Source of the DNA: a virus | Lineage: Duplodnaviria; Caudoviricetes | IMG/VR virus record: IMGVR_UViG_3300012663_001055 | Coordinates: 1-53,898 of that record | Strand: one strand, 5' to 3' | DNA length: 53,898 nucleotides | Part shown: positions 3,523 to 41,981 of the stretch, one piece after another | Numbering within the stretch: the stretch's first letter is position 1 | How the letters are laid out: each line of letters opens with the position of its first letter | The notes under the pieces: generated by a model | What the model saw: only the letters and a program-made list of their open reading frames with translations | Told to the model about the DNA's origin: nothing | Databases searched by the model: none | Made by a program: the position numbers and the translations under genes

Positions 3523-3531
3523 TATATGTCC

Positions 3532-4893: not shown

Positions 4894-4895
4894 TT

Positions 4896-5156: not shown

Positions 5157-5176
5157 TTTTCTCTCCGATAATCCAC

Positions 5177-5184
5177 TATTTAGT
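5177..5184 (-). promoter_or_regulatory. Putative internal late promoter (ACTAAATA) for the last C-B-A-D module
   Basis: Minus strand AACTAAATA in the intergenic gap between A3 and C2. Confidence 0.5.
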
Positions 5185-6536: not shown

Positions 6537-6545
6537 AATAAATCC

Positions 6546-7994: not shown

Positions 7995-8004
7995 AGTTGG
8001 TTAT

Positions 8005-9345: not shown

Positions 9346-9355
9346 AATATTTCTT

Positions 9356-11518
9356 TCAAAGCTTTGGTACAGCTAATGCTAAACGACTATCTGGACCGCT
9401 AGAATATAACCAGTTTGCAATGTTTGGTCCATTGGGTCTACCCATAGTAAAAGGTAACAACATGTATGTTGTGCCGTCTACCACAACTTCATCACCTGGA
9501 TAATAATCACCATTAAAAACATATAAACCAGATAGGTCAGTTATATTTCCACCACTGACACCACCCGAAACCCATCTATGATACATTGGTAACAAAGCAT
9601 AACCATAATATGATTGAAGGTCAGAAGAAATCCATCTTGAACCAATTTGACTAATGCTAGGTAAAAACCAGTTTGCTGGTGCAGTATAACCACCTCGAAT
9701 TGGTGCGGCCGCAGCCGCCGTTTGTGATATTGCTAACAATGAACCTGCAGCTTGTGTTGTAACAGTGGCCGCACTATATGAATATCCACAAAAACCACCT
9801 TCATCAGACCATTTGGTTCCACCAAGACCTATTGCTGTGTATGGAGCAACATAATAATTTCTCCAATTGTTTGTTCTATTTACAGCATTAGAAAATGAAG
9901 GTGCATTTCCTGGAAGATTACCAAAACAATTCAACATCTGTAAAGAAAGGTTTTGGTATGTTGGATTGGTGGATAAACCTGGGTCTCTTTCGTTTGTGGT
10001 AGGAACTTGGGTACAAAATACCTCGTCTTCCCTACTAAACAAACCTTCCCCTGGACCTTTTTGTTGTTGGTATATATTATAACCAGAATGATTATTGAAT
10101 ACCAAAGGAATTATGGAATTTACTTGACTGTTTAATATGTCATTACGTATGTATTGAGAATAGATGTGTGGCCCATTCCAAATATCTGGTCTATAATTAT
10201 TCGTTGCATAGGCAGGTAAACCATATACATTATATGTAACATCTCTGTTAGCTGCCCATGCAAAACTTGTGTCGGTTAGATATACCCAAAGAGTGGATAT
10301 GCCACTGTTAATTGAAGAAGAAAACATCATGGTTTGAGCATTTGATGATGATGCATTACCTGTGGTGCGTAGATTAATTAAAGTACCTTGTGCGGTTGTT
10401 TGTAATGTTGCTGCTGTAATTGGCCATTGTGTTGAAGCCATGTCACCAACAATTGTATTTGAAATTTGTGAATTGGCATTACCTTGCAAGGTACCTGTTG
10501 TACTCAAAGAAATATAATAACGACTATTCAGTGTTGCAGAAAGAGAAAAAGGATAAATCACAGCATTACCAACGGGTGTAACAGCAAAAGCAGAACCTGA
10601 ATTTGCTGATGAACTATCGGAAAATGTTGGTTGTTGGCATGTCAATAAAATGCATTGGCCGGAAGTAATTGGATTGGTGTTGGTTGTGCCGCCACCAGCA
10701 GGTTGTATTGTGATTAATGGTGAAGTCAGTGGTGGTGGTTGAAAGTTTCCACTGTATACACCTACACCTTTTACCACTCTTAAATTTGCAATATAACCAT
10801 TAAGTTGATTGGAACCTCCAAAACCACCGCCAATTAAAACAGGTCCACTAGCTGCATAATTATTGCTATCATTATAACCGGAACTTTGTTGTACACCGTT
10901 AACATAAAGATGTGTTACGGTTGTTATCCTTACGAGCGCAACGTGTACCCAATTTCCAGTAAAATTGAATGAACTGGATACTATCGGTCCAGCGCCTGCA
11001 ACATACAATTGAATTTGATTGGCATTTAAAAAATATATAACTGGATGTAATGAAGTTGAACCAGTTCGGTTATCAAACAGAGTGCCTGAACTACCGCCAG
11101 ACAAATAAATCCAACCTTCAATAGTAAATTGACCTGTACCAAAGTCAAATGCGCCGGTGCTTCTCGGATCAATACTTAAATAATCACCAGTGCCATCAAA
11201 ACTTGCGGAATTAAAAACGTATGATTGTGCATCATAAACCTTTTGACTCAACACAAATTCAAAAGGTGTATTTGAAGATGTTGCAATTGGTGGTCTTGCA
11301 ATATGACTATATGTGTTTGGTGTTATATCATTTGTTCTAATAATATAACTTGTTGAATCTACCAAACCTGTTAGTAAATCGGCCGCATAACTAGCCGATG
11401 TTTCTCTACTTCTTAGGTTGGCAATACTATTAATTGATGGATTGTTAATGATATCACTCACAACTCTCCATGTTTGCGCTGGTGTTTTTTGTGTATTATA
11501 ATTTAACTTGATTAACAT
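9356..11518 (-). CDS. Array family B, copy 2 (720 aa), with an inserted LamG/concanavalin-A-like lectin domain
   Basis: Family B framework plus a ~235-aa insert with FDGTGDYL, FDFGTGQFTIEGWIY, WVHVALVR, LYVNG, GYIANLRVVKG (Laminin_G_3-type signature). Confidence 0.85.
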   Translation of the reverse strand: MLIKLNYNTQKTPAQTWRVVSDIINNPSINSIANLRSRETSASYAADLLTGLVDSTSYIIRTNDITPNTYSHIARPPIATSSNTPFEFVLSQKVYDAQSYVFNSASFDGTGDYLSIDPRSTGAFDFGTGQFTIEGWIYLSGGSSGTLFDNRTGSTSLHPVIYFLNANQIQLYVAGAGPIVSSSFNFTGNWVHVALVRITTVTHLYVNGVQQSSGYNDSNNYAASGPVLIGGGFGGSNQLNGYIANLRVVKGVGVYSGNFQPPPLTSPLITIQPAGGGTTNTNPITSGQCILLTCQQPTFSDSSSANSGSAFAVTPVGNAVIYPFSLSATLNSRYYISLSTTGTLQGNANSQISNTIVGDMASTQWPITAATLQTTAQGTLINLRTTGNASSSNAQTMMFSSSINSGISTLWVYLTDTSFAWAANRDVTYNVYGLPAYATNNYRPDIWNGPHIYSQYIRNDILNSQVNSIIPLVFNNHSGYNIYQQQKGPGEGLFSREDEVFCTQVPTTNERDPGLSTNPTYQNLSLQMLNCFGNLPGNAPSFSNAVNRTNNWRNYYVAPYTAIGLGGTKWSDEGGFCGYSYSAATVTTQAAGSLLAISQTAAAAAPIRGGYTAPANWFLPSISQIGSRWISSDLQSYYGYALLPMYHRWVSGGVSGGNITDLSGLYVFNGDYYPGDEVVVDGTTYMLLPFTMGRPNGPNIANWLYSSGPDSRLALAVPKL

Positions 11519-11949
11519 TATGAAATCCAGGATTCGGCACCACCGGCACCAGTAACAGTCGATAAAGAAGTATTTAGAACTTGTACAGGATAGATTTGTC
11601 TGAGTTGTTGCACACTGGTTTGTATAATTGTATTTGCATATGTTTTATCCGTTGTCGGATTAATAACCATTGCTTCGGTATTTGAATGTATATAACTACG
11701 TTCGACCACAAGTGCGGTGTTAGTACTATAACCCTCAGAAGATAACATTCTTATAGGTTGATATACTTTTGAAGTTACATTTGAACCAAGAAGTGATCCG
11801 GTGTTTGCATTTACAGTTGAGATTACACTATTGGCATTAAAAATTGATGGTATTACTCCACTAGGTAAAACTATTTTTATCGAATTGTTTGTCCCGTATC
11901 CATGTATACCATTAATGTGTATGTTTGTAACCGCTAAAGTTAAAGCCAT
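11518..11949 (-). CDS. Array family D, copy 1 (143 aa)
   Basis: Paralog of 1761..2225; translationally coupled (TAATG) to the downstream B gene. Confidence 0.8.
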   Translation of the reverse strand: MALTLAVTNIHINGIHGYGTNNSIKIVLPSGVIPSIFNANSVISTVNANTGSLLGSNVTSKVYQPIRMLSSEGYSTNTALVVERSYIHSNTEAMVINPTTDKTYANTIIQTSVQQLRQIYPVQVLNTSLSTVTGAGGAESWIS

Positions 11950-11952
11950 TTT

Positions 11953-13251
11953 TTATTCCTTAGGAATGGAAACTCCTATGCGGTTCATCACATTATCAAA
12001 CGTTGGCCACACAACATAAGTTTTTCCAGCAATGGTGTATTCGTCACCAGCATTATATTCACCATTGAAAATGTATATACCACTTTGTTCTGATGCTGTA
12101 CCACCAAAATTGCCCCAGTAATCGCAGTTCCAACCTAATGGTTGATGTAAGAATGATGATGAACCTAAATCGGAAGACCCAGAACGCCATTGTGGTGTCA
12201 ATGCTAATCCTGCTGCATAGTTATTTGTTGCGTTTCCTATACCAACAGCAGCGTTTGCTCCTGAACCAACAGTAAATACTGTGTTTGCCAGACCCAATGC
12301 ACCGTATGAAGATTTTGTTCCAACCATGTGATTAACAAATTGACCATATGATGCTGTTGGTCTTGTGTATTGAATTGTTGCCATACCAAAAGTTGAAGAA
12401 ATTCTATAAGTATTCAATACAATAAATGGTGGCGCCGCACCCGCCAAAGCGGAAACAGTTGTGTAGTTTACGTTTGTTCCATATACAAAATCATTTGCCA
12501 ACAAACCTTGGCCATCAGCACGTGCATTTAAAATCATCAATGGGAATACACCGTTTGAACTTGAATTCCAGTAATCATAACGTGTGTATTGTGACATTAT
12601 CCAAGGTCCGGAGAAGTTGGAAATACCTTGTTGTGCTGGTGATGGCCAACCATTGATGTTGGCAGTTTGATTTGTACACCAAACAAATGCTGTATTGGAA
12701 ACATATGCATATAATGTTCTGATACTGTTTGTAGATGCAGTGGAAGTACCAGAAGTTCCTGCGGTGTATATAGAACCAACAGCTGTGTAATCAAACCCTG
12801 TACCACCAATAGTTAAGTTGGTGCCAAGATAAGTTGTGTTAGCATCAGCAACGTTGTCTGGTAGTTGTGAAGATGTGATTGTACCACCAGTAATTGATGT
12901 GGCATATGCAGCATAGTAACTAATCGAACCTGTTACAGATGGATTAATGTATTGTATGTAACCCTTTGAAGTCGGGTCATCATATGCTGCCATTTCCAAA
13001 GTAAACTTTGATTGTCCTGTTGAATTCTGTCCAGAAAAATGTGCTTTTGTTTGAGATGGATTAACTGTTCTAATAATGGTACTGTTAACAGGATCAAAGT
13101 TACCAATCATACTCGATGTATAACCAGCTGAGTTTGCAGCATTATAGAAAGAAGTTACATCAACAATATCTGGTGTGTTGATTATGTCCGTTAACACACG
13201 GAACATGTGGTACAATGATTTGTTTGCAGTAAAGTTTAATTTGATGTACAT
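11953..13251 (-). CDS. Array family A, copy 1 (432 aa)
   Basis: MYIKLNF start, GPWIMSQYTRYDYWN, FNGEYNAGDEY, ends VSIPKE. Confidence 0.85.
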   Translation of the reverse strand: MYIKLNFTANKSLYHMFRVLTDIINTPDIVDVTSFYNAANSAGYTSSMIGNFDPVNSTIIRTVNPSQTKAHFSGQNSTGQSKFTLEMAAYDDPTSKGYIQYINPSVTGSISYYAAYATSITGGTITSSQLPDNVADANTTYLGTNLTIGGTGFDYTAVGSIYTAGTSGTSTASTNSIRTLYAYVSNTAFVWCTNQTANINGWPSPAQQGISNFSGPWIMSQYTRYDYWNSSSNGVFPLMILNARADGQGLLANDFVYGTNVNYTTVSALAGAAPPFIVLNTYRISSTFGMATIQYTRPTASYGQFVNHMVGTKSSYGALGLANTVFTVGSGANAAVGIGNATNNYAAGLALTPQWRSGSSDLGSSSFLHQPLGWNCDYWGNFGGTASEQSGIYIFNGEYNAGDEYTIAGKTYVVWPTFDNVMNRIGVSIPKE

Positions 13252-13255
13252 AATG

Positions 13256-14632
13256 TTATACCTTTGGAACTGCTAATGCAACACGTGATTGGCTGCCTTG
13301 TGAAGTGCCGTAACCTAAATTGGTATTCACGGCTGTTGCCATAAGACCAGGAATTAAAGTGTATGTTATACCACCAACAGTTATTTCATCACCAATAAAA
13401 TAGTCACCATTAAACAAATACATACCAGACTTATCTGTTATGTTACCACCATTAGAATTGTAATGTGGTGTTCTAAATGTCATTGGGTATAGAATGAATC
13501 CATAATATGATTGTAAATCTGATGCAACAAACCTATAATTTGTAAATGCATGAGTGTATGTTGCGGATGTATATAAGAATACAATGTTACCATAAGACCT
13601 TGCAATCGCACTTGTTGATGGTTGTGCTGCAGATGTAAAGTTTTCTGCGGCCGCCGCCAAATTTCTTTGGTCTGAATACACAGTAGAAATACCCAAACAA
13701 GTATTTGCATGTGCAACAATTGTTCTAGGTGTAATGTTGTTTGTCAATACATTGTTTGCAACATGCATTACTTGCAAAGAAATATTTGTGTTGTTGAGTC
13801 CTTGTGGCAATTGTACCGCCGACAATTCTTCAAAGCGACTTAGGAATCCTTCACCTTGGCCTTTTGTTAAATTGGAAAATGTTTGCACTGATGCACCAGT
13901 AATGTTCGGATGGTTTGTATACACCAAAGGTATAATACCATTTGCATCTGTATTCCAATAATCACCTCTTGTGTATTGGGAATAGAAATGTGGACCTTGT
14001 TGGTTCAAATTTTGTGCTACTGGCGTTGCAGTGAATGATGTTGGGTGACCAGGTAAATTGTAAGATTGTGTGTTACAATTCCACATAAAACAGGTATCAG
14101 TTATGTAAACCCAAAATGTAAACAAACCTAGACCACCTGCATTGTATGCACCAAAGGCATTTGAGGTCGTACCACCAACACCCAATGGACTGCCTTGGAT
14201 TGTTGTTTGTGTGGTTGAGGTTGTAACATCCCATTGTGAAGTTGATACGTCACCTGATGTTGAACCAATTTGTGATGTAACCAAATAAGATGCTGCAACA
14301 ATATTACTTAATGAAACGTAATAAGAGGTACCTGCCGAGTCTAATACTTTTTGTTTCAAAATAAATTCGAACACAGAATCGGAAGAAGTGGCCACGTTTG
14401 GTCGTGCAATATGAGCAACAGTGTTTGCTGTTGTTAAGTTGCTTGGGTTACGAACAATAAAACTGGTAGAATCTACCAAGTTGGCCAATAAATCTGCGTT
14501 ATAATTTGCAGCAGTAGCACGTGCTCTAAGAGCAGTCAAGTTATTCACGCCGACATTATTGATAATATCCGCAAGTATGCGGAAGCAAGCCGCAGGTGAT
14601 TTTCTACTACTGAAATTTAATTTGATTAACAT
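13256..14632 (-). CDS. Array family B, copy 1 (458 aa)
   Basis: MLIKLNF start, HIARP, SQYTRGDYWNTDANGIIPLV (identical to B4), ends LAVPKV. Confidence 0.85.
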   Translation of the reverse strand: MLIKLNFSSRKSPAACFRILADIINNVGVNNLTALRARATAANYNADLLANLVDSTSFIVRNPSNLTTANTVAHIARPNVATSSDSVFEFILKQKVLDSAGTSYYVSLSNIVAASYLVTSQIGSTSGDVSTSQWDVTTSTTQTTIQGSPLGVGGTTSNAFGAYNAGGLGLFTFWVYITDTCFMWNCNTQSYNLPGHPTSFTATPVAQNLNQQGPHFYSQYTRGDYWNTDANGIIPLVYTNHPNITGASVQTFSNLTKGQGEGFLSRFEELSAVQLPQGLNNTNISLQVMHVANNVLTNNITPRTIVAHANTCLGISTVYSDQRNLAAAAENFTSAAQPSTSAIARSYGNIVFLYTSATYTHAFTNYRFVASDLQSYYGFILYPMTFRTPHYNSNGGNITDKSGMYLFNGDYFIGDEITVGGITYTLIPGLMATAVNTNLGYGTSQGSQSRVALAVPKV

Positions 14633-23464: not shown

Positions 23465-25123
23465 TTATAGGCCTGTTCCAGATGGTAAGGCCAATGTTCT
23501 CATGTCTTTTAAGAATGGTGAGAATGTTGGGTCGTTTGAAGTCATCACAATCTTAATCATGTATTGATAGAATTTGGTGTATGATAGACCAGTTTTTGTA
23601 CTTGTGTACGACACTTGGTTGTCTGCTGCACCACCTGAACCAGGTGCTGCCTCATATTCATAGATATCATTTCTACTGATTGAGTACTTCGAATCACCAT
23701 TGACAAAGGTCATTAGTTGCCAGTTGCCTTCTTCAATTGGTTGTATATCATCACGTGAAACAATTTTGTAATACACGTGTATGTTGGTGCCAACTGGACG
23801 ATATGCGGTAAAGAATACACGCAAGTCACCAGAGTCATTGTTTGTTCCTAGTGTGATTGGTCGTGTGATGTATCTTGTCCAACCATTACCACCTGATGCA
23901 GATGTTTCACCAGTGGCAACCACTTGTGCAGCTGAGGTGTTCGTACCAATTACACTGATTGTTGGTGTGGAGATGTATCCTGCACCCTCGGTCGTCACAT
24001 ACACACTAACAATATTACCTGAAACAACGTTAGCTGAAACGTATGCTTGTGTGCCTGTCGTACTTGTTGGTGCCGACACGGAAATATTCGGGTAAATTAA
24101 TGTGCCATTTGCACCACCCAAATAACCTTGGCCGCCTGCAACGACAGTAATATCCGTGTTGGACAATCCCAAGTTATTAATTCTGAAACGAGTTGTGTAG
24201 ATAGTTAAACCATCATCAGAAATTACTGGTGAAACTGCATCTGAAACAGTCCTTAATGTGGCATCTAATTTGAATGATGTGTTTGTTGCATAGTCCAACA
24301 CACGTTGACCTAGGTTGTCATCCAAATATATGTCTTCAGCTGAAGGTGTACCAAATTTACCAGGATTAAATCCGTAAGGACCATCTGTTGTACCTGAACC
24401 CTTTAATGTGGTTGTGTACTGATAATCAATTGTTGTACCTGGCGGTGTAAAATCTGTGGTCGCAACGTTGAACAAATCGTATGTTGCATTAGATGTTGCT
24501 GTTGCGGTGTTAACATCAACCTGTGTTCTCTCTGGTAGACCTCTTGGAACAACAAATGGTACCACAGGATTGTATGATGTGACAAATTTACATCTGTTCA
24601 TAACGAACATAAGGTCTTGTGTTTGGTCCGCAGTCCATGTGATGGAGTTTTGCGATTCAAAAATGTCACCAACGTATGGTGTAGTTACAATTTTTGTTGC
24701 TGAGGTGGGGTTAACATCTGTGTAGTTTGCTTTTGATGTTGACAACAACGCACTGTCACCTTGTTTAGCACACCACAAATTATATTCACTTGAAGAAGAA
24801 GTCAAACAGAAAGCATACAATTGATTTGGATTGATGTAAACTGGAAAATCAAACGTGAATTTGGTTGCTGTTGCTGCATTTTTATAGTGCGGAGTCTCAG
24901 ACACATTGACCTTATCCACATTTAGATATACAATTGAGTGGTCTAGGGACGTGCCAGTAGGATATCCATTAATAGTTGGTAGAATATACAACTGAATAGG
25001 AATATTTGTAGTTGGTTTTGTTCTAAAAAACAAACTAATGGAGCTTAGAAAAACTCCGTTTGGAAAGTTAGCGCCATCAATAATAAATGACTGTGCTAAA
25101 GGATCAATAATTGTGCTTGCCAT
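23465..25123 (-). CDS. C-terminal half of a DUF4815/VrlC-like large structural protein
   Basis: Begins MASTIIDPLAQSF..GVFLSSI.LFF; FESQNSITWT..Q..DL.F, SPVI, YITRPITL; own RBS (AAGGAAG). Confidence 0.8.
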   Translation of the reverse strand: MASTIIDPLAQSFIIDGANFPNGVFLSSISLFFRTKPTTNIPIQLYILPTINGYPTGTSLDHSIVYLNVDKVNVSETPHYKNAATATKFTFDFPVYINPNQLYAFCLTSSSSEYNLWCAKQGDSALLSTSKANYTDVNPTSATKIVTTPYVGDIFESQNSITWTADQTQDLMFVMNRCKFVTSYNPVVPFVVPRGLPERTQVDVNTATATSNATYDLFNVATTDFTPPGTTIDYQYTTTLKGSGTTDGPYGFNPGKFGTPSAEDIYLDDNLGQRVLDYATNTSFKLDATLRTVSDAVSPVISDDGLTIYTTRFRINNLGLSNTDITVVAGGQGYLGGANGTLIYPNISVSAPTSTTGTQAYVSANVVSGNIVSVYVTTEGAGYISTPTISVIGTNTSAAQVVATGETSASGGNGWTRYITRPITLGTNNDSGDLRVFFTAYRPVGTNIHVYYKIVSRDDIQPIEEGNWQLMTFVNGDSKYSISRNDIYEYEAAPGSGGAADNQVSYTSTKTGLSYTKFYQYMIKIVMTSNDPTFSPFLKDMRTLALPSGTGL

Positions 25124-25132
25124 TTTCTTCCT

Positions 25133-25552
25133 TTATATGTTATATTCTTTTTCAAGAACGCTTAACATATTATTTATCAACTGTTTTGCATCTTCGGTTT
25201 TGTTATCAGACAATGCAGAAACAACGTTTCTTATGTGAATGTAATTAATTCTACTGAAAATTGAATGTTGTTCGTAGTATGGTTTGTCCATCAAACCCAT
25301 TTCTTCTATCAACCGTTCACCTCGTACATAATATTCCACATTTTCTTCATCAGGTAAATTGTTTCGCATGTCTCTTAACATCTTCACTTCATTTGGTGTA
25401 TACTCACCAATTCTATCGTGTATGATACTATAAACGAAACAATTTTCCTTACGACTTAACAATGTGGTTACACAATGTTCTTCGGTACCATGTTCTGCAC
25501 AGTGAGAACAAGCCTCTTTCTGTGCAAAATATTCAGCTACACTTATACCCAT
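25133..25552 (-). CDS. 139-aa protein with an N-terminal Cys/His cluster and a CFI-box-CTERM-like helical domain
   Basis: ATG at 25552, one base after the upstream stop; CSHCAEH..EHC, then NCFVYSII...EVKMLRDMRNNL.....EYYVRGERLI. Confidence 0.65.
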   Translation of the reverse strand: MGISVAEYFAQKEACSHCAEHGTEEHCVTTLLSRKENCFVYSIIHDRIGEYTPNEVKMLRDMRNNLPDEENVEYYVRGERLIEEMGLMDKPYYEQHSIFSRINYIHIRNVVSALSDNKTEDAKQLINNMLSVLEKEYNI

Positions 25553-25553
25553 A

Positions 25554-28500
25554 TTATTTGTACAGGCTAGTCCAACATTTCTTGGCGAATCTAGTTGTGA
25601 CCAATGCACCAACTGTCATCCACACTGCAATCCAAGCGACAGAGTTTGGTATAGATAGTGGGTTGAACTTCTTACCCATCACCATGTTTGTACCATTTGT
25701 CCATGCCCAATTCGCATAAGCACTAAACCACTTACTACGTAGTGCAGGCACCAACAACTTAGAACCAATAACTTGGTAACCACGGCGGAAGCATTCACCC
25801 AACATCTTGTTGTGTAGATACTTTTCACACCATGCAATCAAGGTATCTTTTTGTTCTTGTTGCCATAGACCTTTGTCTGTGAGTGCAGTTGCAATCACAC
25901 AACATCCACCGCCACCACCTGATGCAGTAACTGAGGTGACGTTTGTAACAAAACCTGCCTGTGTTTGAATAGTTGTCTGTGTATTCTTTGCAGTAGAAAT
26001 AGATGCAGAGTAATCAATTTGTTGTGAACGAGTTGACAAACCTTGTGCATAGAATGATGCCTCAGCAAAAGTATTTTCTGTACCTGTTGAGTATCTAAAT
26101 TCATTTTCAGTTTGATTAATGATTCTGTCATCAAGTCTGAACACACGTTCACCAGAGTGGAAGTAACCACCTGGTAATGTGAACACACCAGAAATGGAAC
26201 CAACTTCATTGGTTACCAATGAACCAATTGAGTAACCATCTCCTGCCAAGTATGTAATACTTCTATCCAATGTCACTGTCTTGGTATTTGTATTGTATCC
26301 GGTAACAGTTGCTTTGTAACCCTTAGGTATAGATGCAACACCTGTTGGTGAACCAGTTACAATCTTAAACTCTTGACCAGTATAGATATCAGTTGAAGAT
26401 GCCAGTGCAGACAATGTAACGTTTGCAGTTGTTGTACCATTCGTTGCAATCTTACCAGACCAATGTGTCTGTGACGCCATTGTACCTTGTGCAGTACTTG
26501 TTTGATATACACCACTTGTGTTAAAGAATGAGTTAACAATCGTGCCAGTAGAGGTGTAGTTGGTTGTATCAAGGTCACCAATCACATACAAACGAACGTT
26601 GCCGTTAGGATATGTGTAAACGTCAGACAAATAACCTGCATAACGGAACACAGAACTAGAAACATAACCAATGGTGTCACCTCTTGTGAACTTACCTGTA
26701 CCGGATACGTTAGTCAATTCAATGATGTTTGGTTTTCTAATCAAACGAGACACACGTTTGCCATCAAAGAAAGCATTCACCGCTGTCTTGAACAACATAC
26801 CGTCCGCTTGGAACATAATGTATTGACCACGGATGTAAGGCAGAATACTTACGTTAGTCAAGTAGTTACCAACTTGGTTGTAAGATTGTGACCAGTAACC
26901 GTATGTGTATTGGTTTTCTTTTGTGACTGTGGTTGTTGTGGTTGTTGTACGACCGTCAACAACAGCAGTATCTTTTTGTGTACCTGGAATAGTCTTCCAG
27001 TCACCAACTGCCAGTGTTGGGTTACCTTCCAACAAGTTCAGTGAACTGGATGGGTTGTATACTTTCAAGTTAGGGTCAACGAACAACAAATCTGGTTCAG
27101 CAGTGTTGTCAACCCAATTGTCCATTGGTGGAGTTAATGTGATGTTACCAGTTGATTTAACAACTGAGAATGGATTAGCATTGAGTACTCTACTTGCCAA
27201 TGGTTGTGCAACCAATTGAACTTCTTCATATGGTAGTGTGTATAGTGCAGAAGAACCTGTAAACTTAGGGTAATAATTTAAGTTGTTTAGTGTTGTCTGA
27301 GAAAGATTCTTAGCACTCAACAAGTTCAAGTTCTTCAATGAGTAGTTCTTAACCAACAATGCAGGTGTCAAGTACTGCAAACGAGTATTGATAGCAGCAG
27401 AGAAGTCTTTATTGGTTGTATCACCAACGGAGAAGGTTGAGAAGTCATCAACCATAATACCGTTTTTAAATCTATTCAGACCATTGTTGTCTGGAATTTG
27501 TAGACTTGCGGCATTCTGTTCAATCAAACTCAATGAGGTGTAGTATTCAAGATTGTTAACACGTGTTTGAAGGTCAGTAATGTCACTGAACGCCCAACGT
27601 TTGTGTAGAACTGGTTGAATAAAGATGTTGGATGGTTGACCAACTGTTTCACCTGGTAAATTTGCAGTGTATGGATCCAATGTAATATTGGCCAACAACA
27701 ATGCGGATGATGGTGTGACAGGTGCTACTGGTTTGGCTGAAGGTTGACCTGTAACAATCTTGATAGATTTATCTTTGTCAATAACAAGAATGTCTTTTCT
27801 ACCAAGGTAGTATGTGTAGTCACAAACAAAAGTGGACAAGTCAACTGGTATCAATGCACCAGAGAAGTTTGTTGTTGTTGGTGTTGTTCTGTACTTATAT
27901 GTAAATTCAGTCTGAGCATTCAATACAACAGGTCTAAAATCCAAACAGTCTTTCAAACTATATGTCGTGCCTTTTTTGGCCTTGTATGTTGGTCTATCTG
28001 TGAAAGTACTGCCTGCATACGATTGTGCAGAAAAATAACCATCACCACCTGAGTGTGAATAGAAGTCAAACAGAATCAGAATGTTGGTTGGTTTTGAGTA
28101 ACCAGGTTTCAATGTGATGTATGAATGACCGTAGTAACTATCTGTTTGTCCATCATTGAATTCATAACGGTCAGTTACATCATATGAGTTGTCGACCAAC
28201 ATGTTATTTGTTGGTAAAGAGCCTTTACAGTCAATGATTTTTCTAATTCTACGAACGTCAGAAACATACAATGATTGTTTTGAACCGTATTGTGCAACAT
28301 AACTTTGAGTAACATACAATTGACCGTTGTTTAGGTCAAGATAGTTACCAAAGTTAATGATGCCATCAGGTCCAGTGTAGTTTACATAGTTTGTATTAGC
28401 AGTAATTAATGTTTTGGTTTTTAACACATAGTTGGTGTCGTTACCATTTGTAACACTAACCTTGGCATAAATTGTTGCAGTGAATGGTGATAAATCTAAT

Positions 28501-30587
28501 GCAGTAAATATTACGGAATTTTTTGATGCATCAACAGCAACACTTCTGTTAGCAACGGAGAATGATATCACATCACCAACGTTGATAGATGAGTTGATAC
28601 CCTTATCAGTAACAACAACCATCCAGTTTTGTTTCAACGCATCGGCAGTTTCAGTTGAACCTGTTCTGAGGAAGTCAAAAGAACCTGTTGCGGAAATGTC
28701 CAATGACAATGTACGTTGTGAACCAGTTGAGTACAAACCAAATGTTTGACCTCTAAATTCTTGTGTGGTTGTGTATGAAGAATCACTGATTGAGTTTGCA
28801 TAAGGAATACCTAATGGCAAAATCAATTCTGGTGTTGTCTGATTGAACAACACTGTGTCGCCAGTAATCAATTGGTCGGTTTTACCAACGTTATTGATTG
28901 CAGCACTACCGTAGATAGTGAATGCTGAGTTTGAAAAGTATGTTAATGCTTCAACGTCTTTGGTACCAAATCTCAGAGAGAATGTGTCTGCTGCTGATGG
29001 TGTCAATGCAAAAGGCACATCAACTTTAGCAGTCTTTGTTGAACCATTATAGTCCACAATCTTTCTGGTGTCACCAAGGTCTGAACCCGAATCAATAGTC
29101 ACAGTCACACCAAGGTATGCATTAGCAACTGAACTGAATTTACCATTTGTATCGGTGAAACTAATGTGAGTTGCGTTCGCAGAAGCAATTGAACCACTTA
29201 GAACTTTGTTTGCAACATCATACACATAGGCTTTATATACCCATGTTCTGGTATTAGAATCACTTGTGCTTGATGTGTACACTAAGTTTCTAATGTAACC
29301 AGTACCAGCCAAAGTGGAATTGTACACAGTGGTGTTGGATGTTTTAAGGTTCTCAACTCGTACAGTATGCAAGTCAACTGGTGTTGATGTTGTTGGTCCA
29401 AAGAATGAACCGTTGGCACCTTTAACAGTGTCAACTAAGAAATATGAACCGTAGTCCACAAAACTTGTATTATTTTGTACAGTTTCTGTTGTTCTAGAAC
29501 GGTCTGAATCCAAACGTACAGTAGATTGGTTCTCTACTCTGTAACCTTGCACGTATGCTTTACCTGGACCAACAGTAAGAATATATTTGTCGCCGTTGAT
29601 GGTGTTGGCTGATGGTGTTAACTTGAAGTCTTGTACAATGTAGTCACCACTGGTTTCATAGGTTCTTTTTGCAAAGTAATCATCAATAGATGAGTACACA
29701 GAACCATCAACTTGTTTAGATACTGCACCATCTTCAATGCGAACCAACTCAATAAACTGGTCATCGTTACCAATATCTAATGGCAAAGCAGTTAATTGTA
29801 GTTCAATGTAGTAACGGTCTGCACCAGGAGCCTGATAGTTGGATGCACCAACTGCTGGGTCAAGCAATGTCTTGTCACCAATGGCATCAACCACGGTTTC
29901 GGTAATAAACAAACCAACACGATATGATGGTGTGCTACTATATTTGTTTAGAATGATTGTCTGTGGCAATACGGATACAAAATTGCCAACCGAATACTTT
30001 GTGTATGTGCCATCTGTATTCTGTACACTAGATTGAGAATAACCATTCACAACATAGAACACACCTTCAGCAATAGAAGCTGTGGAAGATTTACCTGTAC
30101 ATGTGGTACCGCCTGCAACACCAACTGTTGTTGCGTTCAAAGAAGAACCATCAACTGGATAAAGGTGCATCGCATCGGTGAATCTGTCACCAGAAAGGTA
30201 AGAAACAATCAATGTTGGTGGGTCACCAGCTGCAACGTCTGTACCAGTTGCTTCTGCTGTTGCAATAACCTTGGCAGTAATTGCACCTGTATCATCCGAA
30301 ATAATCTTGTTTAGAAAATCTGCAGCTGCAATATTCTTATTGTTGTACTGTCTATTTAATTTGATGTAGTAACAATTGAAATTGGATGTAACCTTACCGC
30401 CAGAGACAGGAGTATTCTGTGTGAAGATGTGGTTTGCAAACTTGGAAATTTGATCCTGAATGATGGTCTGAGACTGTGTTAGTTCTCTCGCCTGCACCGC
30501 ATAACCTGGTTTGAACAGTATGCGGTGGAAATTTTTCGATGGGTCAAAGTCATCGTAGTATGGTTCAACGTTAAAATTCAGAGCCAT
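25554..30587 (-). CDS. N-terminal part of a DUF4815/VrlC-like large structural protein, with a foreign C-terminal domain
   Basis: FNVEPYYDDFD..K.FHRILFKPG.AVQARELTQ.Q, NY.APGADR, AKRTYETSGDY, GKAYVQGY, RVNNLEYYTSLSL, RFKNG..VDDF; ends GGGGGCCVIATAL plus ~110 aa. Confidence 0.88.
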   Translation of the reverse strand: MALNFNVEPYYDDFDPSKNFHRILFKPGYAVQARELTQSQTIIQDQISKFANHIFTQNTPVSGGKVTSNFNCYYIKLNRQYNNKNIAAADFLNKIISDDTGAITAKVIATAEATGTDVAAGDPPTLIVSYLSGDRFTDAMHLYPVDGSSLNATTVGVAGGTTCTGKSSTASIAEGVFYVVNGYSQSSVQNTDGTYTKYSVGNFVSVLPQTIILNKYSSTPSYRVGLFITETVVDAIGDKTLLDPAVGASNYQAPGADRYYIELQLTALPLDIGNDDQFIELVRIEDGAVSKQVDGSVYSSIDDYFAKRTYETSGDYIVQDFKLTPSANTINGDKYILTVGPGKAYVQGYRVENQSTVRLDSDRSRTTETVQNNTSFVDYGSYFLVDTVKGANGSFFGPTTSTPVDLHTVRVENLKTSNTTVYNSTLAGTGYIRNLVYTSSTSDSNTRTWVYKAYVYDVANKVLSGSIASANATHISFTDTNGKFSSVANAYLGVTVTIDSGSDLGDTRKIVDYNGSTKTAKVDVPFALTPSAADTFSLRFGTKDVEALTYFSNSAFTIYGSAAINNVGKTDQLITGDTVLFNQTTPELILPLGIPYANSISDSSYTTTQEFRGQTFGLYSTGSQRTLSLDISATGSFDFLRTGSTETADALKQNWMVVVTDKGINSSINVGDVISFSVANRSVAVDASKNSVIFTALDLSPFTATIYAKVSVTNGNDTNYVLKTKTLITANTNYVNYTGPDGIINFGNYLDLNNGQLYVTQSYVAQYGSKQSLYVSDVRRIRKIIDCKGSLPTNNMLVDNSYDVTDRYEFNDGQTDSYYGHSYITLKPGYSKPTNILILFDFYSHSGGDGYFSAQSYAGSTFTDRPTYKAKKGTTYSLKDCLDFRPVVLNAQTEFTYKYRTTPTTTNFSGALIPVDLSTFVCDYTYYLGRKDILVIDKDKSIKIVTGQPSAKPVAPVTPSSALLLANITLDPYTANLPGETVGQPSNIFIQPVLHKRWAFSDITDLQTRVNNLEYYTSLSLIEQNAASLQIPDNNGLNRFKNGIMVDDFSTFSVGDTTNKDFSAAINTRLQYLTPALLVKNYSLKNLNLLSAKNLSQTTLNNLNYYPKFTGSSALYTLPYEEVQLVAQPLASRVLNANPFSVVKSTGNITLTPPMDNWVDNTAEPDLLFVDPNLKVYNPSSSLNLLEGNPTLAVGDWKTIPGTQKDTAVVDGRTTTTTTTVTKENQYTYGYWSQSYNQVGNYLTNVSILPYIRGQYIMFQADGMLFKTAVNAFFDGKRVSRLIRKPNIIELTNVSGTGKFTRGDTIGYVSSSVFRYAGYLSDVYTYPNGNVRLYVIGDLDTTNYTSTGTIVNSFFNTSGVYQTSTAQGTMASQTHWSGKIATNGTTTANVTLSALASSTDIYTGQEFKIVTGSPTGVASIPKGYKATVTGYNTNTKTVTLDRSITYLAGDGYSIGSLVTNEVGSISGVFTLPGGYFHSGERVFRLDDRIINQTENEFRYSTGTENTFAEASFYAQGLSTRSQQIDYSASISTAKNTQTTIQTQAGFVTNVTSVTASGGGGGCCVIATALTDKGLWQQEQKDTLIAWCEKYLHNKMLGECFRRGYQVIGSKLLVPALRSKWFSAYANWAWTNGTNMVMGKKFNPLSIPNSVAWIAVWMTVGALVTTRFAKKCWTSLYK

Positions 30588-30596
30588 TTTTTTCCT

Positions 30597-31991
30597 TTAA
30601 TAACCTATTACAATTTTGAACTGTTCAATGCCGTCTGCACTTCTAGTAATTGTGCTTCTATTTTCTATATATGTTAGATATCCAGAAGGTAAAACTATGT
30701 CAGGTTCTGTAACAGTTAGTAGTGTTCTTGTTGTTCTTGAAACTGCGGCATACAATGGTGCGTTCACCGAATAAGTGCCTGTTTTATTTATGACTCTCAG
30801 CACGTTGGATCCTGTGTCGTGTGACAAAGCAGTTGCGACAAATGTTGCTGTCTCTAATGAACCACCTTGAAATACAGTTTCGCCAGAGATGTATGTACCA
30901 TAACCAGCAGCAATTAAAAGTTCTGTTGAGGCTTTGTATACGGTATTATTTGCAGGCAATGGACTCAGTGACTTGGAAACGGGGTTGATTACGATACCAA
31001 CTTGGTGATAATCAATGTCTATTGGTACCAAACCACTTTCTGAACCATCAAACTCCACGTTGTACATAACATGTGAACATCCTAGTTCGGATACGTTATC
31101 GAATCCGTGGCCGCCAATTGGGGAGACGGGTGCGATTGCATGAGCACCAAAACCAATTGCGGATGAAATGATTACGTTTGCCCAATTGTAATCTTTACCG
31201 GCATCCGTCACAATAATGTCGGTGATTTCACCATTGGGTGCAACTGTTGCATATCCTGCCGCTGTTGTTCCTGGTACACCGTTTGCAGCAGTACCATCAC
31301 CAACAATACGTACAGAGATGGCCGCATTGGATAAGTCATACAAATAACCATGTTCTACTACGTTGATAACGTCAATGTTACCTACACCTGACTTAGATAC
31401 CAATGGATTCACCAAGTTTGGATCGACCGGCACTGGCATCCAAGAATCGTCCATGAATTTTACTTTGGAGAATGTATCAATGGTGTATAGATATTTCCAT
31501 TTGTAACCATCTGAACCATTGAACACCAAATTGGAACCAAAACTGCCTGGTTCCAAGAACGGTTCGTAGTTAGAACGTTCTTCGTTATTGTTCCATACAC
31601 ATTTAAAAACCTGGTCGTATCGGTTCTTGACGTAGAATTTGTTTAATAAGAAACCATTATCATCTTTAGCTAACATATCTTCTGTGTCGTTATAGAAAGA
31701 GTAGACCGTATTTGCAGTCCAGTCAATACGTTCTGCAACAGGAGAAATATCTGCCGTTGTAATGTGCTTAGCTGCAATGGCATTCTTAAAGAACAATCTT
31801 TCTTCTAATGTGGATTGTGAAATCTCTGGAAGATTGTCGTTATCTGGCCAAGGATTAACCTTTGCGATAACAAAATAAGAGGTTGCTAAGTTCACACCAT
31901 AGTTTGGTGGAATAACCGCAGACGGTGCATAGTAGTTCAACAACGAAGCGTTAACTTTTGCGTTGTGTGTTAATAATGTTTTCTTTGCCAT
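30597..31991 (-). CDS. gp8: Baseplate wedge subunit, T4 gp8-like
   Basis: RIDW, FYV....QVFKCVWNN, DGYKWKYLYTI, SPIGGHG.D...ELG, YIENR..ITR..D..E..KIVI. Confidence 0.9.
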   Translation of the reverse strand: MAKKTLLTHNAKVNASLLNYYAPSAVIPPNYGVNLATSYFVIAKVNPWPDNDNLPEISQSTLEERLFFKNAIAAKHITTADISPVAERIDWTANTVYSFYNDTEDMLAKDDNGFLLNKFYVKNRYDQVFKCVWNNNEERSNYEPFLEPGSFGSNLVFNGSDGYKWKYLYTIDTFSKVKFMDDSWMPVPVDPNLVNPLVSKSGVGNIDVINVVEHGYLYDLSNAAISVRIVGDGTAANGVPGTTAAGYATVAPNGEITDIIVTDAGKDYNWANVIISSAIGFGAHAIAPVSPIGGHGFDNVSELGCSHVMYNVEFDGSESGLVPIDIDYHQVGIVINPVSKSLSPLPANNTVYKASTELLIAAGYGTYISGETVFQGGSLETATFVATALSHDTGSNVLRVINKTGTYSVNAPLYAAVSRTTRTLLTVTEPDIVLPSGYLTYIENRSTITRSADGIEQFKIVIGY

Positions 31992-39977: not shown

Positions 39978-40814
39978 TTAAATCATTGGACCAATTGCTG
40001 GTGACGTTGGACCATACGGTGCAATATGTATGTGTGTATCATATATTGCTGTGTTTATCACGTCCGTCATCAGAATTGATTCCATAACACCAAAACTACC
40101 GAGTGGAGCATTCATGGATGCACCTGCATTGATTGAAATGCCAGCAATAATGTTGGTCGAACAGATAATTTGTTGTGGTACTGCTGCAGGTATACCAACA
40201 GCCACACCGCCAAGCATTGTAACAAAACCTAATGGTCCTGCTCTCATGCCAGTACCTGCATCAACACGTGTTTCAGAAAATATTTTTGATGCTTGAATTT
40301 CACCGTCCACGGTCAAATCTGAATTCATGTGTACGTGACTACCGCATGAAATCATTAACGCACCGCCGCCAAAAGCACCAGCAGTAAGGTGCATATCTTG
40401 CACAGTGCTCATGTTAGTAATGCCTTCCACCACTTGGGTGAAATTACCTTTGATGTATTGTTCGTAGTTTCCGTCAATTTGTTCAATTTTGTCACCAATC
40501 ACATGCATAACACAGTCACCTTCTACGGTGATGTTCATTTTGCCTTTGACAAGAATGTTTCTGTCTTTGATTGTGATTTCATAACCATCACCATACACCT
40601 TATGTACCTCATCACCATTAGGATGCATTTCAATGAATGTTCCTGAACGGTGCGACAATCGTACACGTTCACGGTCACGTGTGTCATCCATTTCAAATAC
40701 GTGACCAGATTCGGTCTGCAACACGTGGTTGAATGGATATTTTGGTTGAAAATCGGTATTTGCAGCCGATTCAGGTTCTGTCCAACCTGTATAAAAACTT
40801 GGTTTATCTGCCAT
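39978..40814 (-). CDS. gp5: Baseplate spike, gp5 C-terminal part (beta-helix, HxH tip)
   Basis: YPFNHV..TESGH.FE.DDT...ER....HRSGTF.E.HP.G; V.GD/GN repeats; ends DTHIHIAPYGPTSP. Confidence 0.85.
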   Translation of the reverse strand: MADKPSFYTGWTEPESAANTDFQPKYPFNHVLQTESGHVFEMDDTRDRERVRLSHRSGTFIEMHPNGDEVHKVYGDGYEITIKDRNILVKGKMNITVEGDCVMHVIGDKIEQIDGNYEQYIKGNFTQVVEGITNMSTVQDMHLTAGAFGGGALMISCGSHVHMNSDLTVDGEIQASKIFSETRVDAGTGMRAGPLGFVTMLGGVAVGIPAAVPQQIICSTNIIAGISINAGASMNAPLGSFGVMESILMTDVINTAIYDTHIHIAPYGPTSPAIGPMI

Positions 40815-40826
40815 CGTATAGTTCCA

Positions 40827-41981
40827 TCAAGGAGATTGTAAAGCCAATCGAACGTATTGATTGTCTACTGTCGTTTGTTGTATTGCCAGATTGGCATTAT
40901 ATCTTTCAGTTTCGAAAAATATAGTTAAGGTGTCTGTTTGAGTCTGAGTTGGTGTTGTAGAATTCAAAATATCTTGCAATTCTGCTGGTAACGTGGTAGT
41001 TTCCTGTTCACCAATTTTATCATTAATTAATCCTTCAGCAACAGTTTTCAAATCCCCAACCGCTTGCTGAATTTCAGATGCAATTTGACCTGGAATTGCT
41101 TTAACTTGGTCTGCCAAGTTTGTGATGGAATTTTGGAAATCCAAAAGACATTGTTTTATCAATGCTTTGATTCTGTCTGGTAGACTGTTCAAATAATCAA
41201 TTAATTGTTTAATTTCTTGTACCAAATAGATATAAAATGCAATGTCTTCAATGTATTGGGCAATCTTCTTTATGTAATAGTTGATTGTGTTGATAATTTT
41301 TTTGGCTTGTGAGAAAGCATACGACCATTCACCACTAGGATCAAATCCAATGGCTTTCAGTATAGCTTTCAATGCGAGTCTTAGCTTATCATTAATTTGT
41401 TGTAGGAAACTGCGTATCAATGCTGCCGCCTTCAATTTGCCATTGCGGATGGCCTTTGAGAATTCTGCGGCAGGATTCAATAAACCACCAAATAAGAAAC
41501 TAAAATTAATTTGGAATTTAAAATCGCAAACGTGTTCTAAGTTGGCATTTGCACGTGCAATTGCACTGGCCTTCAATTCACCATATGCAGTCGGCGCAGT
41601 AGTTGGTTTGCCCAATTCACCACCCAACATGTCAGGTGACTTAGGATAATCTGCTATAGGTATTGTACTGCCAGATTTATCGGGTAATGTCGTATTAATA
41701 CCAGGCAACAATCCAGCCATAATTGGCACTTGACTGCTTTGTTGGTCCATAAAGAATCCCCAAACAAAATCACCTTCTTTTGGTGTATTGAACATTCGGG
41801 AACCATTAATTGATTCTGTCGCTGCCGTCCATGGCAAGCTTGCGGTTGGTAACTTGACTTTATCCTCGTCATGTAGACCAACAATTCTAACTTTACAACG
41901 ACCTAGTCTTAATGGGTCATTTCTATCTTCAATGACGCCCATCCACCAATTGAAATATTTTGCAAAAAAACCTTGACTCAT
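40827..41981 (-). CDS. gp5: Baseplate hub gp5 N-terminal OB-fold protein with a helical extension
   Basis: WWMGVIEDRNDPLRLGRCKVRIVGLH...LPWT...EGDFVWGFFMD...Q.P. Confidence 0.85.
   Translation of the reverse strand: MSQGFFAKYFNWWMGVIEDRNDPLRLGRCKVRIVGLHDEDKVKLPTASLPWTAATESINGSRMFNTPKEGDFVWGFFMDQQSSQVPIMAGLLPGINTTLPDKSGSTIPIADYPKSPDMLGGELGKPTTAPTAYGELKASAIARANANLEHVCDFKFQINFSFLFGGLLNPAAEFSKAIRNGKLKAAALIRSFLQQINDKLRLALKAILKAIGFDPSGEWSYAFSQAKKIINTINYYIKKIAQYIEDIAFYIYLVQEIKQLIDYLNSLPDRIKALIKQCLLDFQNSITNLADQVKAIPGQIASEIQQAVGDLKTVAEGLINDKIGEQETTTLPAELQDILNSTTPTQTQTDTLTIFFETERYNANLAIQQTTVDNQYVRLALQSP

Follow-up and report, generated by a model that had tools for sequence, protein, structure and literature searches.

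In the freshwater, T4-like phage whose DNA makes up the window (the whole stretch analysed, 53,898 nucleotides), the gene for the large baseplate protein VrlC is divided into two by a two-gene cassette, which occupies a domain boundary lying six codons upstream of DPLAQSF. The first cassette gene is read in frame with the VrlC N-half, to which it adds a glycine linker and a Cys-led tail; the second, ORF2, is a separate small gene whose ATG (25552) lies one base past the N-half stop (Table 1).

Table 1. Features of the divided VrlC region and its upstream neighbour (positions in the window)
Feature	Position	Strand	Basis
gp8-like wedge gene, directly upstream of the N-half	30600-31991		phrog_438 match
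N-half ORF including Gly5 and tail, 1677 aa	25554..30587	-	
VrlC/DUF4815 N-half proper, residues 1-1556	25920..30587	-	Pfam, PHROG, phiM9 alignment
Gly5 linker	25905..25919	-	read directly
Cys-led helical C-terminal tail (candidate cap), 116 aa, subfamily A	25557..25904	-	homologues, AlphaFold
N-half stop codon	25554-25556	-	read directly
ORF2, 139 aa, four invariant Cys	25136..25552	-	alignment A2; stop 25133-25135
Spacer, 9 bases, with AGGAAG ribosome-binding site (25127-25132), before the C-half ATG	25124..25132	-	read directly
VrlC/DUF4815 C-half, 552 aa, starting 6 residues before DPLAQSF	23468..25123	-	stop 23465-23467

The N-half matched Pfam DUF4815 (E 1.6e-64) and positions 5-1405 of the 2056 in phrog_358 (E 4e-237), while the C-half (N-terminus MASTIIDPLAQSF; ORF with its stop, 23465..25123) matched phrog_358 from position 1422 on (E 2.1e-85). 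The original prediction, made from the letters alone, held that this protein is normally one polypeptide. In support of this, VrlC is a single gene, directly after gp8, in phiM9 (1737 aa), phiM12 (1802 aa) and Syn19 (2430 aa). Residues 1455-1530 of the N-half aligned with residues 1140-1207 of the phiM9 protein, and the C-half, from its residue 7, with phiM9 residues 1256-1734; in Syn19 VrlC the C-half alignment begins at residue 1667. Alignment with the unsplit proteins revealed that no family sequence has been lost at the split. The predicted exit from the family was confirmed in the sequence (...VTSVTAS, then GGGGG, then CC, with the first Cys codon at 25902-25904), as was the restart of the C-half from a ribosome-binding site and ATG of its own. 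The proposed 800 bp or so of foreign sequence correspond to 781 bases that separate the first Cys codon from the ATG of the C-half; rather than a single extension, this interval comprises the tail plus a gene that had been overlooked, ORF2. All four segments of this region, N-half, tail, ORF2 and C-half, are under purifying selection.

A full-length VrlC would be restored if the cassette were removed at the RNA level, as an intron, or skipped by recoding. We regard this as scarcely credible, and found no support for it: a search of 24800-26300 on both strands against Rfam gave no match at E ≤ 1 and hence no intron model, both the tail and ORF2 show conservation at the protein level, and the C-half carries its own translation start. 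Moreover, a contig from an RNA library bridges the ORF2/C-half junction and contains no joint that skips the cassette, although this evidence is weak because contigs show only what is present.

The cassette could also be selfish mobile DNA, a homing-type element or what is left of one, merely interrupting the gene and playing no part in the particle. That unrelated carriers have the cassette, and that it occurs at two positions within VrlC, would fit this idea, as would the existence of unsplit relatives at 36-45% identity and of Hint-type elements at the same site. However, the tail matched no nuclease family, and neither did ORF2 (GIY-YIG, HNH, LAGLIDADG or similar; Pfam, NCBIfam, PHROG and PDB profiles). 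Patchy presence among close relatives was not seen: 17/17 of the loci that we call VrlC type A contain the cassette, which diverges in step with its host gene, and both of its genes are under the purifying selection noted above. An independent contig from a pond metagenome was colinear and had no joint skipping the cassette; note that contigs cannot prove absence. A selfish origin of this kind is thus very unlikely.

The tail is Trp-rich and helical, with a hydrophobic segment, as had been predicted. It contains 8 Trp among its 116 residues and a hydrophobic stretch, and then continues ...RFAKKCWTSLYK to end in SLYK-stop. AlphaFold modelled six helices and no strand (pLDDT 85, pTM 0.73), with the hydrophobic helix packed within a single compact bundle, an arrangement that is compatible with a soluble domain too. 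Five positions are invariant in alignment A1 (G5, C7, V8, T11 and A12), and the dN/dS of the tail against five relatives was 0.06-0.28, with dS saturated. The identity of the tail is 54-84%, compared to 47-66% for the N-half. These data support the tail as a conserved module, not read-through junk.

This tail domain belongs to a large, undescribed and almost phage-only superfamily, which has no entry in the copies of Pfam, NCBIfam and PHROGs that were searched. It comprises 271 representative clusters (E ≤ 1e-3, 50% identity) in four subfamilies, all of which have an invariant Cys as domain residue 1. Wherever it was found, the domain forms the very C-terminus of a virion-type protein. Its carriers include VrlC N-halves, fibre-like proteins rich in glycine, and proteins of podoviruses, among them CRP-1 gp49, which has a third subfamily. 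The tail is strictly C-terminal and follows poly-Gly in all 73 longer homologues, as it does in the 51 IMG/VR loci described below, and the Gly run has 2-10 residues in the relatives. Subfamily B, confirmed in 253 viral stretches, is related to subfamily A with an hhalign probability of 99.8%, and 65/69 carriers have its Cys at a distance of 100-101 residues from the end. The fourth subfamily starts G6-C-x-IICTKL and has a terminal hydrophobic segment. A pattern-limited scan of 185,579 species genomes of cells yielded 0 and 2 confirmed matches.

The 51 subfamily A loci found in IMG/VR consist of 17 VrlC type A, 13 VrlC type B and 21 with other carriers. The type B genes, a second VrlC clade, are cut about 130 residues earlier than the gene in the window and lack ORF2. 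The carriers other than VrlC lie within tail-fibre clusters, with Gly_rich_2; in the cluster of the window itself, a neighbouring 804-aa fibre gene has fibre PHROG matches at its C-end.

ORF2 homologues occur only directly behind tail-type domains: in 34/34 loci the preceding gene ends in one. The reverse does not apply, since ORF2 is downstream in 17/17 type A loci and in 22/51 subfamily A loci overall, and many other carriers, like type B, are without it. Four Cys are invariant in ORF2 (C15, C18, C27 and C38; alignment A2), and its AlphaFold model has a pLDDT of 82. ORF2 belongs to no family in Pfam, its NCBIfam and PHROG matches were at chance level, and a search against PDB profiles gave nothing relevant. 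In the tail tree, the ORF2-linked tails of fibre-like carriers nest among the VrlC type A tails.

The original prediction proposed looking at what else occupies this boundary in homologues, and this was informative: Hint-type domains were found there in two of them. In one (L138), the boundary holds poly-G and a Hint-like domain starting G-C-F-I-A-D-T, followed by a coupled ORF of 154 aa ahead of the C-half; in the other (P0126), VrlC is followed by two Hint domains (50 bits, above the cut-off), G6 and then the tail. A third locus (L139) has VrlC split at this point but contains no module there. In P0126, P0129, P0153 and P0164 the tail is immediately preceded by a Hint domain, a rare architecture (4/212 proteins; 0/69 subfamily B carriers). 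Since Hint and tail stand in tandem in these four proteins, neither is simply an exchangeable copy of the other.

Is the tail itself an autoprocessing domain? The prediction had likened it to Hint-type modules, a resemblance that did not hold: the modelled fold is all-helical, neither the tail nor the whole N-half matched Hint, Hom_end_hint or Vint at E ≤ 1, and there is no terminal Asn with a following nucleophile, the tail ending as given above and the C-half starting with an ordinary Met-Ala. The Cys at position 1 is present. A non-Hint autoprocessing domain, whose first Cys would attack the Gly-Cys bond and release the N-half, which in the strong version would then be joined to the C-half, is decidedly unlikely. 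The invariance of this Cys across the subfamilies would agree with it, as would the Hint-like domain at the equivalent position in L138 and the first residues of the tail, C-V-I-A-T, which we take to resemble the first Hint block. Against it, no autoprocessing fold was matched, Foldseek returning nothing at E ≤ 0.001 and the best VIA Z being 4.7; no invariant His or Lys that could partner the Cys as a general base was found in alignment A1; and the residue preceding the Cys varies, being C in 84, G in 81 and S in 12 of 194 proteins, and so is not always Gly. Ligation of the two halves, also part of the original prediction, is unsupported and would not be needed: nothing suggests it, one VrlC is split here with no module and type B is cut elsewhere.

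We tentatively favour the reading that the tail is a cap that works only as a C-terminus, associates with a membrane, has a dedicated partner and is probably detached on maturation. The stop and restart inside VrlC would then exist because the acquired domain functions solely as a C-terminus, and the two VrlC halves would assemble as separate subunits. The domain would be a candidate membrane-associating cap, tethered through the flexible linker; ORF2 would handle it, as a chaperone or metal cofactor protein; and the cap would probably come off the mature N-half close to where Gly meets Cys, in the way that the rare relatives would achieve with the Hint domain just upstream. Note that several findings speak against this reading: the rarity of the Hint-Gn-tail architecture, the variable residue before the Cys, the lack of an invariant His or Lys, the compact AlphaFold bundle, the borderline hydrophobicity, and the missing ORF2 in type B and many other carriers. 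The hydrophobicity was measured as the 19-residue Kyte-Doolittle (KD) peak, which was 1.48 for the tail of the window, 1.63 on average in subfamily A (at least 1.6 in 9/19 members), 1.24 on average in subfamily B and 1.64-2.0 in the ICTKL subfamily, where the segment lies 1-2 residues from the end. Tail-anchored membrane proteins have a single transmembrane helix no more than about 30 residues from the C-terminus; judged by KD peaks, a membrane segment of this kind in the tail is a borderline prediction.

It is also possible, though doubtful, that the tail remains part of the virion as a working domain, a soluble bundle of helices that would bind the host envelope, or insert into it, during infection, with ORF2 as its assembly chaperone, as for the tail-fibre assembly protein behind a fibre tip. 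The buried hydrophobic helix of the compact model is in line with this, as is the baseplate or fibre-like nature of the carriers, whose genes lie in tail-fibre clusters; among podoviruses, the CRP-1 carrier gene adjoins the portal gene, and in L055 and L058 the ORF just downstream of the carrier has a match to the 'DNA ejection protein' of PHROG. The strict adjacency of tail and ORF2 mirrors cassettes of fibre tip and chaperone, and the tree indicates exchange of the cassette between carriers. However, the Hint domain upstream of the tail in the four tandem proteins would cut it off the virion protein, the tail is unusually conserved for a tip that contacts the host, ORF2 has no match to tail-fibre assembly proteins in PHROG or Pfam, and most tails have no ORF2.

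A more far-reaching possibility, which we consider unlikely, is that the cap with its leading Cys works together with the four-Cys partner as a phage-specific, non-Hint processing system, interchangeable at this site with Hedgehog-like Hint modules. The first Cys would form a thioester with the Gly run or be modified (lipidated, for example), and the baseplate or fibre protein would be membrane-tethered during assembly and then be released, or leave with a modified C-terminal glycine.

The prediction had also pointed to CFI-box-CTERM domains, and a true sorting signal of this type would be recognised and cut by a sorting enzyme of host or phage. The layout is shared (a C-terminal position, a Cys-led motif, a helical part, a hydrophobic segment and a basic end), and the match to NF041770, weak as it is, covers nearly the full profile (positions 1-67 of 69). 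Nevertheless, membership was rejected: the scores were 12.2, 12.0 and 12.7 bits against a cut-off of 40, and only 3/19 tail family members matched at E ≤ 10 (best E 0.019). In addition, the motif and the hydrophobic segment lie about 85 residues apart, the carriers are cytoplasmic phage structural proteins, and no gene for a sorting enzyme lies nearby, so this explanation is highly improbable. A literature search on the CFI-box-CTERM family found no paper.

VrlC is a hallmark of the double-layered baseplates of cyanophages, pelagiphages, rhizobiophages and numerous phages that infect Gram-positive bacteria, and its function is still described as not established (PMC4621102, PMC7029224). One VrlC domain boundary is a hot spot that has repeatedly hosted a cap with ORF2, Hint-like domains or a bare split, and it offers a concrete handle on the maturation and assembly of the protein. 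The cap and its strictly linked four-Cys ORF2 form a small, testable two-protein system, from which a novel mechanism may emerge by which virion proteins are tethered, chaperoned or cut. The finding also matters for annotation, in which VrlC genes that are split, like the tails they encode, are presently labelled 'hypothetical'.

How does this arrangement compare with known systems? As occurs in Hint, bacterial intein-like (BIL) and Hedgehog-type proteins, the tail begins with a Cys after a Gly-rich linker and terminates the polypeptide, and it occupies the same place in VrlC as the Hint-like domains of L138 and P0126; it differs in its predicted all-helical fold, in matching no Hint HMM and in having no terminal Asn. 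With CFI-box-CTERM domains it shares a strictly C-terminal position, a motif of the Cys-hydrophobic-Ile-Ala-Thr-Ala type, helices, a hydrophobic segment and basic residues, but those are found on secreted prokaryotic proteins, not on phage structural proteins, and the score is far under the cut-off. A polymorphic-toxin layout would place a releasing domain, such as Hint, ahead of the C-terminal domain and a small cognate immunity gene right behind it; here, Hint is upstream of the tail in 4/212 proteins and ORF2 is downstream in 22/51 subfamily A loci. The Peptidase S74 intramolecular chaperone of phage fibres and spikes is likewise a C-terminal module of fibre or baseplate proteins in the same gene clusters, and its first residue is the nucleophile; no relation of the tail to it was found in sequence or fold (no Pfam match to the S74 chaperone profile), and cleavage of the tail is putative. 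In fibre tips of the P2, Mu and lambda type with Tfa, a C-terminal domain and the small gene directly behind it travel together between carriers, as tail and ORF2 do according to their co-inheritance and the tree, whereas ORF2 has no Tfa match and the tail is conserved rather than hypervariable and cuts a baseplate gene in two. Finally, T4-like phages have 'genes in pieces' generated by homing-endonuclease insertion, such as Aeh1 nrdA/mobE, in which inserted DNA splits an essential gene and the halves work as separate polypeptides; here, by contrast, the insert, which encodes no recognisable nuclease, adds a conserved domain to the upstream half and is fixed throughout the clade.

Our results show that the VrlC/DUF4815 baseplate protein of this virus is made as two separate proteins, the N-half and the C-half. 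The N-half carries a DUF4815 match (Pfam, E 1.6e-64) and covers positions 5-1405 of PHROG 358 (2056 positions), and the C-half matches from 1422 on; since they match successive parts of PHROG 358, the two halves correspond to one family protein. As had been read in the sequence, the N-half departs from the family at ...VTSVTAS and runs into Gly5 and then Cys-Cys, the start of the 116-aa domain that ends it (the tail, or cap). The ATG of ORF2, a four-Cys gene, lies one base past the N-half stop, and the C-half is preceded by an AGGAAG and ATG of its own. The original prediction of inserted sequence held, but the insert is not a single extension, since the tail and ORF2 belong to two genes. Alignment with unsplit homologues placed the insertion point six codons ahead of DPLAQSF: N-half 1455-1530 corresponds to phiM9 1140-1207 and C-half residue 7 to phiM9 1256, and the C-half begins at residue 1667 of Syn19 VrlC. 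Because the linker that precedes DPLAQSF in the unsplit proteins stays in the N-half, no family sequence has been lost.

Features of the split genes in the window
Feature	Position	Strand	Length and content
N-half ORF	25554..30587	minus	1677 aa; DUF4815 + PHROG 358
Gly5	25905-25919	minus	after ...VTSVTAS
Cys-Cys	25899-25904	minus	after Gly5; 114 further residues behind
ORF2	ATG at 25552, stop at 25133-25135	minus	139 aa
C-half ORF	23465..25123	minus	552 aa; PHROG 358
gp5-like ORF 1	40830-41981	minus	384 aa; phrog_430 positions 17-130
gp5-like ORF 2	39981-40814	minus	278 aa; phrog_430 positions 327-465

The genes around the split form a T4-type baseplate/tail module (gp6-, gp8-, gp25-, gp5-, gp48- and gp54-like genes and a tube gene), and the N-half lies behind the gp8-like gene, as does VrlC in phiM9 (one gene, 1737 aa), phiM12 (1802 aa) and cyanophage Syn19 (2430 aa). 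Note that the gp5-like hub protein is likewise encoded by two adjacent ORFs (window 39981-41981). At 2230-14632 on the minus strand, between the neck genes and the fibre genes, lie seven ORFs (2230-9345 and 11956-14632; 431-482 aa) for which PHROG gave nothing at E<=1e-5; these could represent paralogues arrayed in the host-recognition region.

Near-identical DNA was found in pond, lake and freshwater metagenome runs, and a 16.6-kb contig from one such metagenome is colinear across the whole stretch. In the assemblies of four runs we found no joint skipping the cassette (tail plus ORF2), all of these being contigs, which show only what is present and are uninformative where they give no cover, and Rfam matched no family at the insert region. 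An intron, whose removal would restore a continuous VrlC reading frame, is therefore an improbable reading of the insert. In the cultured-phage collection, neither the window DNA nor the last 327 N-half residues had a match. The literature passages retrieved on DUF4815 and on VrlC with baseplate (supplements not included) describe neither a split VrlC nor the tail domain, and a term search in one paper on HMO-2011 virion mass spectrometry gave nothing relevant.

The tail represents a conserved domain family that is strictly C-terminal and to which a partner gene is strictly linked. The homologue search recovered 73 longer proteins carrying it at E<=0.01, all 73 with the tail at the extreme end and behind a Gly run; 36 of them contain DUF4815 and six Gly_rich_2. 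Profile A1, built from 19 tails of the window tail's own group (subfamily A), matched 271 representative clusters at E<=1e-3, 38 of them at E<=1e-30. In IMG/VR, 51 tail loci were confirmed and classed by BLAST and HMM. VrlC is cut as in the window in 17 (type A), all with ORF2, and about 130 residues earlier in 13 (type B), from which ORF2 is absent; the remaining 21 carriers are not VrlC, and ORF2 is adjacent in five. The type B C-half (720 aa) opens with the block that corresponds to window N-half 1424-1552. In the tail tree, for which identical rows had been collapsed to 36, the type B tails come out as one clade (support 100/97). The tail family is fixed at one domain boundary within VrlC and, in another clade, at a second. 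Seven tail-bearing proteins (P0023, P0030, P0031, P0033, P0038, P0041, P0044), encoded on contigs of up to 58 kb, are constantly about 475 aa long, and what precedes the tail in them is the VrlC N-half end (...AQGL...); VrlC may be divided in yet another manner here.

The non-VrlC carriers that we scanned are Gly_rich_2, fibre-like proteins within tail-fibre clusters. We rejected the idea that the cassette also splits Gly_rich_2 proteins, as the carriers downstream have no Gly_rich_2 match. In L021-L028 (5539-12208), a single Cys leads the tail of a 274-aa protein and a 509-aa ORF comes next, behind which (scanned in L021 only) lie two ORFs matching a radical-SAM PHROG.

The linkage was also evident from the side of ORF2. 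Thirteen homologues share M1, G2, Y8, C15, C18, C27, T29, L32, S33, R34 and C38, among other residues, and a search with ORF2 confirmed 34 loci. In all 34, the gene just upstream ends in a tail-type domain, of subfamily A in 21 and of another subfamily (ICTKL-type) in 13. Moreover, where tails of fibre-like carriers are linked to ORF2, the tail tree places them with the type A tails (support 86/90). From this linkage and the tree, we conclude that tail and ORF2 have travelled between carriers as one unit; that the unit is a homing element, as its mobility might be read, is unlikely. Values of dN/dS against five relatives were 0.06-0.29 for N-half, tail, ORF2 and C-half, and are only rough because dS was saturated. 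In two loci a single ORF2 is flanked by two tail-type proteins, both with subfamily-A tails in L020 (4313-6381), and ICTKL-type first and subfamily-A second in L029 (4106-5194). In L169, L170, L173 and L178-L183 (about 2321-3340), ORF2-like sequence lies inside an open frame of about 300 aa behind an ICTKL-type domain. Several of these frames hold two stretches matching the ORF2 HMM, which suggests a duplicated or extended ORF2 in them.

Tails of subfamily B (Gn-CVIATHAV...) appeared as weaker matches of the A1 profile search, and hhalign relates them to A1 with 99.8% probability (E 1.2e-28). We confirmed 253 viral stretches and kept 80. In 65 of 69 carriers found by pattern, 100-101 residues separate the Cys from the end, and the distance to the next gene is only a few bases; two of seven ORFs scanned downstream matched the PHROG 'DNA ejection protein'. 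A third subfamily ends gp49 (716 aa, adjoining the portal gene) of the cultured Roseobacter phage CRP-1, the only match of the window tail in the cultured-phage collection (tblastn, E 0.4); there the subfamily-B tail had no match and the CRP-1 tail matched only itself. The fourth, ICTKL-type subfamily starts G6-C-x-I-I-C-T-K-L, and its hydrophobic stretch ends one or two residues before the stop. A pattern-limited scan of 185,579 species genomes confirmed no subfamily-A tail (16 pattern matches) and two subfamily-B tails, on a 102-kb Roseobacter sp. genome contig (L186) and an Alphaproteobacteria MAG contig (L185), which may be prophage or phage contigs.

Neither the tail nor ORF2 has a convincing solved relative. 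AlphaFold predicts six helices for the tail (pLDDT 85, pTM 0.73) and a helical ORF2 whose Cys-rich start is of low confidence. Foldseek against the PDB gave no match at E<=0.001 for the tail, nor did it for ORF2. With VIA, none of 48,161 chains reached Z>=5 for the tail (best Z 4.7, IpaH C-terminal domain 3ckd_A, rmsd 3.0, 71 aligned), and the best for ORF2 (Z 6.0, 6qs0, rmsd 3.2, 97 aligned) is within the chance range for helical bundles. PDB sequence profiles yielded nothing at E<=5 for the tail, and designed proteins and chance rows only for ORF2. The ESM Atlas clusters nearest to the tail are unnamed viral ones, and it held no usable match for ORF2. In BFVD, the best structural matches are unnamed phage proteins (query-normalised TM 0.73, 0.71 and 0.63; none at E<=0.001), one of which (TM 0.71-0.73) has 715 residues, about the length of gp49, a likeness by length alone.

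The tail had been compared with Hint-type modules and with CFI-box-CTERM, and neither assignment survived. The window protein has no match to any Hint model, and the predicted fold is six helices. The CFI-box-CTERM match spans the full length of that profile but scores only 12 bits where the cut-off is 40, and only 3/19 members match at E<=10; in 14 control genomes nothing exceeded the cut-off, and a literature search for 'CFI-box-CTERM' found no publication. We therefore consider true CFI-box sorting, in which the tail would act as such a signal, unlikely.

We propose that the tail domain would need a free C-terminus, and that because of this VrlC would stop and restart. The tail may associate with membranes via its terminal hydrophobic segment, on borderline evidence: over 19 residues, the Kyte-Doolittle peak in the window reaches 1.48, against means of 1.63 (subfamily A) and 1.24 (subfamily B) and values of 1.64-2.0 for the ICTKL type. 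ORF2 could chaperone the tail or supply a metal site. The main rival to a cap that is separated from the mature protein is a cap retained by the particle, where it would act on the host envelope and ORF2 would have served as its assembly chaperone.

Separation of the cap is suggested only by position, Hint domains occupying this site in other phages, and by the rare Hint-tail fusions. Looking for other occupants of the VrlC boundary, as the original prediction had anticipated, we surveyed C-half relatives (13 loci) and N-half-end relatives (12 proteins). VrlC is unsplit in L140-L146, L148-L150 and P0228, and in L139 it is cut at this point without any module. The L138 N-half closes with a Gly-rich run and then a Hint-like domain starting C-F-I-A-D-T-L-I, followed by a helical extension, a 154-aa ORF coupled by GTGA, and the C-half. 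This domain is sub-threshold for three Pfam Hint models (best 18.5 bits vs 29.7), and its best row among PDB sequences is 6y75 (150-residue chain; 125 residues aligned, E 0.35), which we take to be a BIL domain. The helical extension matched nothing at E<=10 with the tail HMMs. The 154-aa ORF (2515-2979), whose GTG start overlaps the upstream TGA, matched neither Pfam (E<=0.1) nor PDB sequences (E<=1); its SHV... and ...CSEF motifs presumably resemble those of permuted papain-like (NlpC/P60-type) enzymes. P0126, a distant VrlC protein, carries two Hint domains (50.3 bits with Hom_end_hint, which exceeds the cut-off), then K-G6 and a subfamily-B tail. Such a Hint-Gn-tail order is rare (4/212 stored proteins; 0/69 subfamily-B carriers). 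Ligation of the VrlC halves is unlikely, L139 being split without any module and type B at another place, and in the window the C-half is a gene with its own start.

The passages of PMC4621102 dealing with VrlC describe it as an abundant structural protein whose function is not established, and localise the homologue of Listeria phage A511 to the baseplate. In the part of PMC7029224 concerned with this gene, VrlC replaces T4 gp7 in pelagi- and cyanomyophages.
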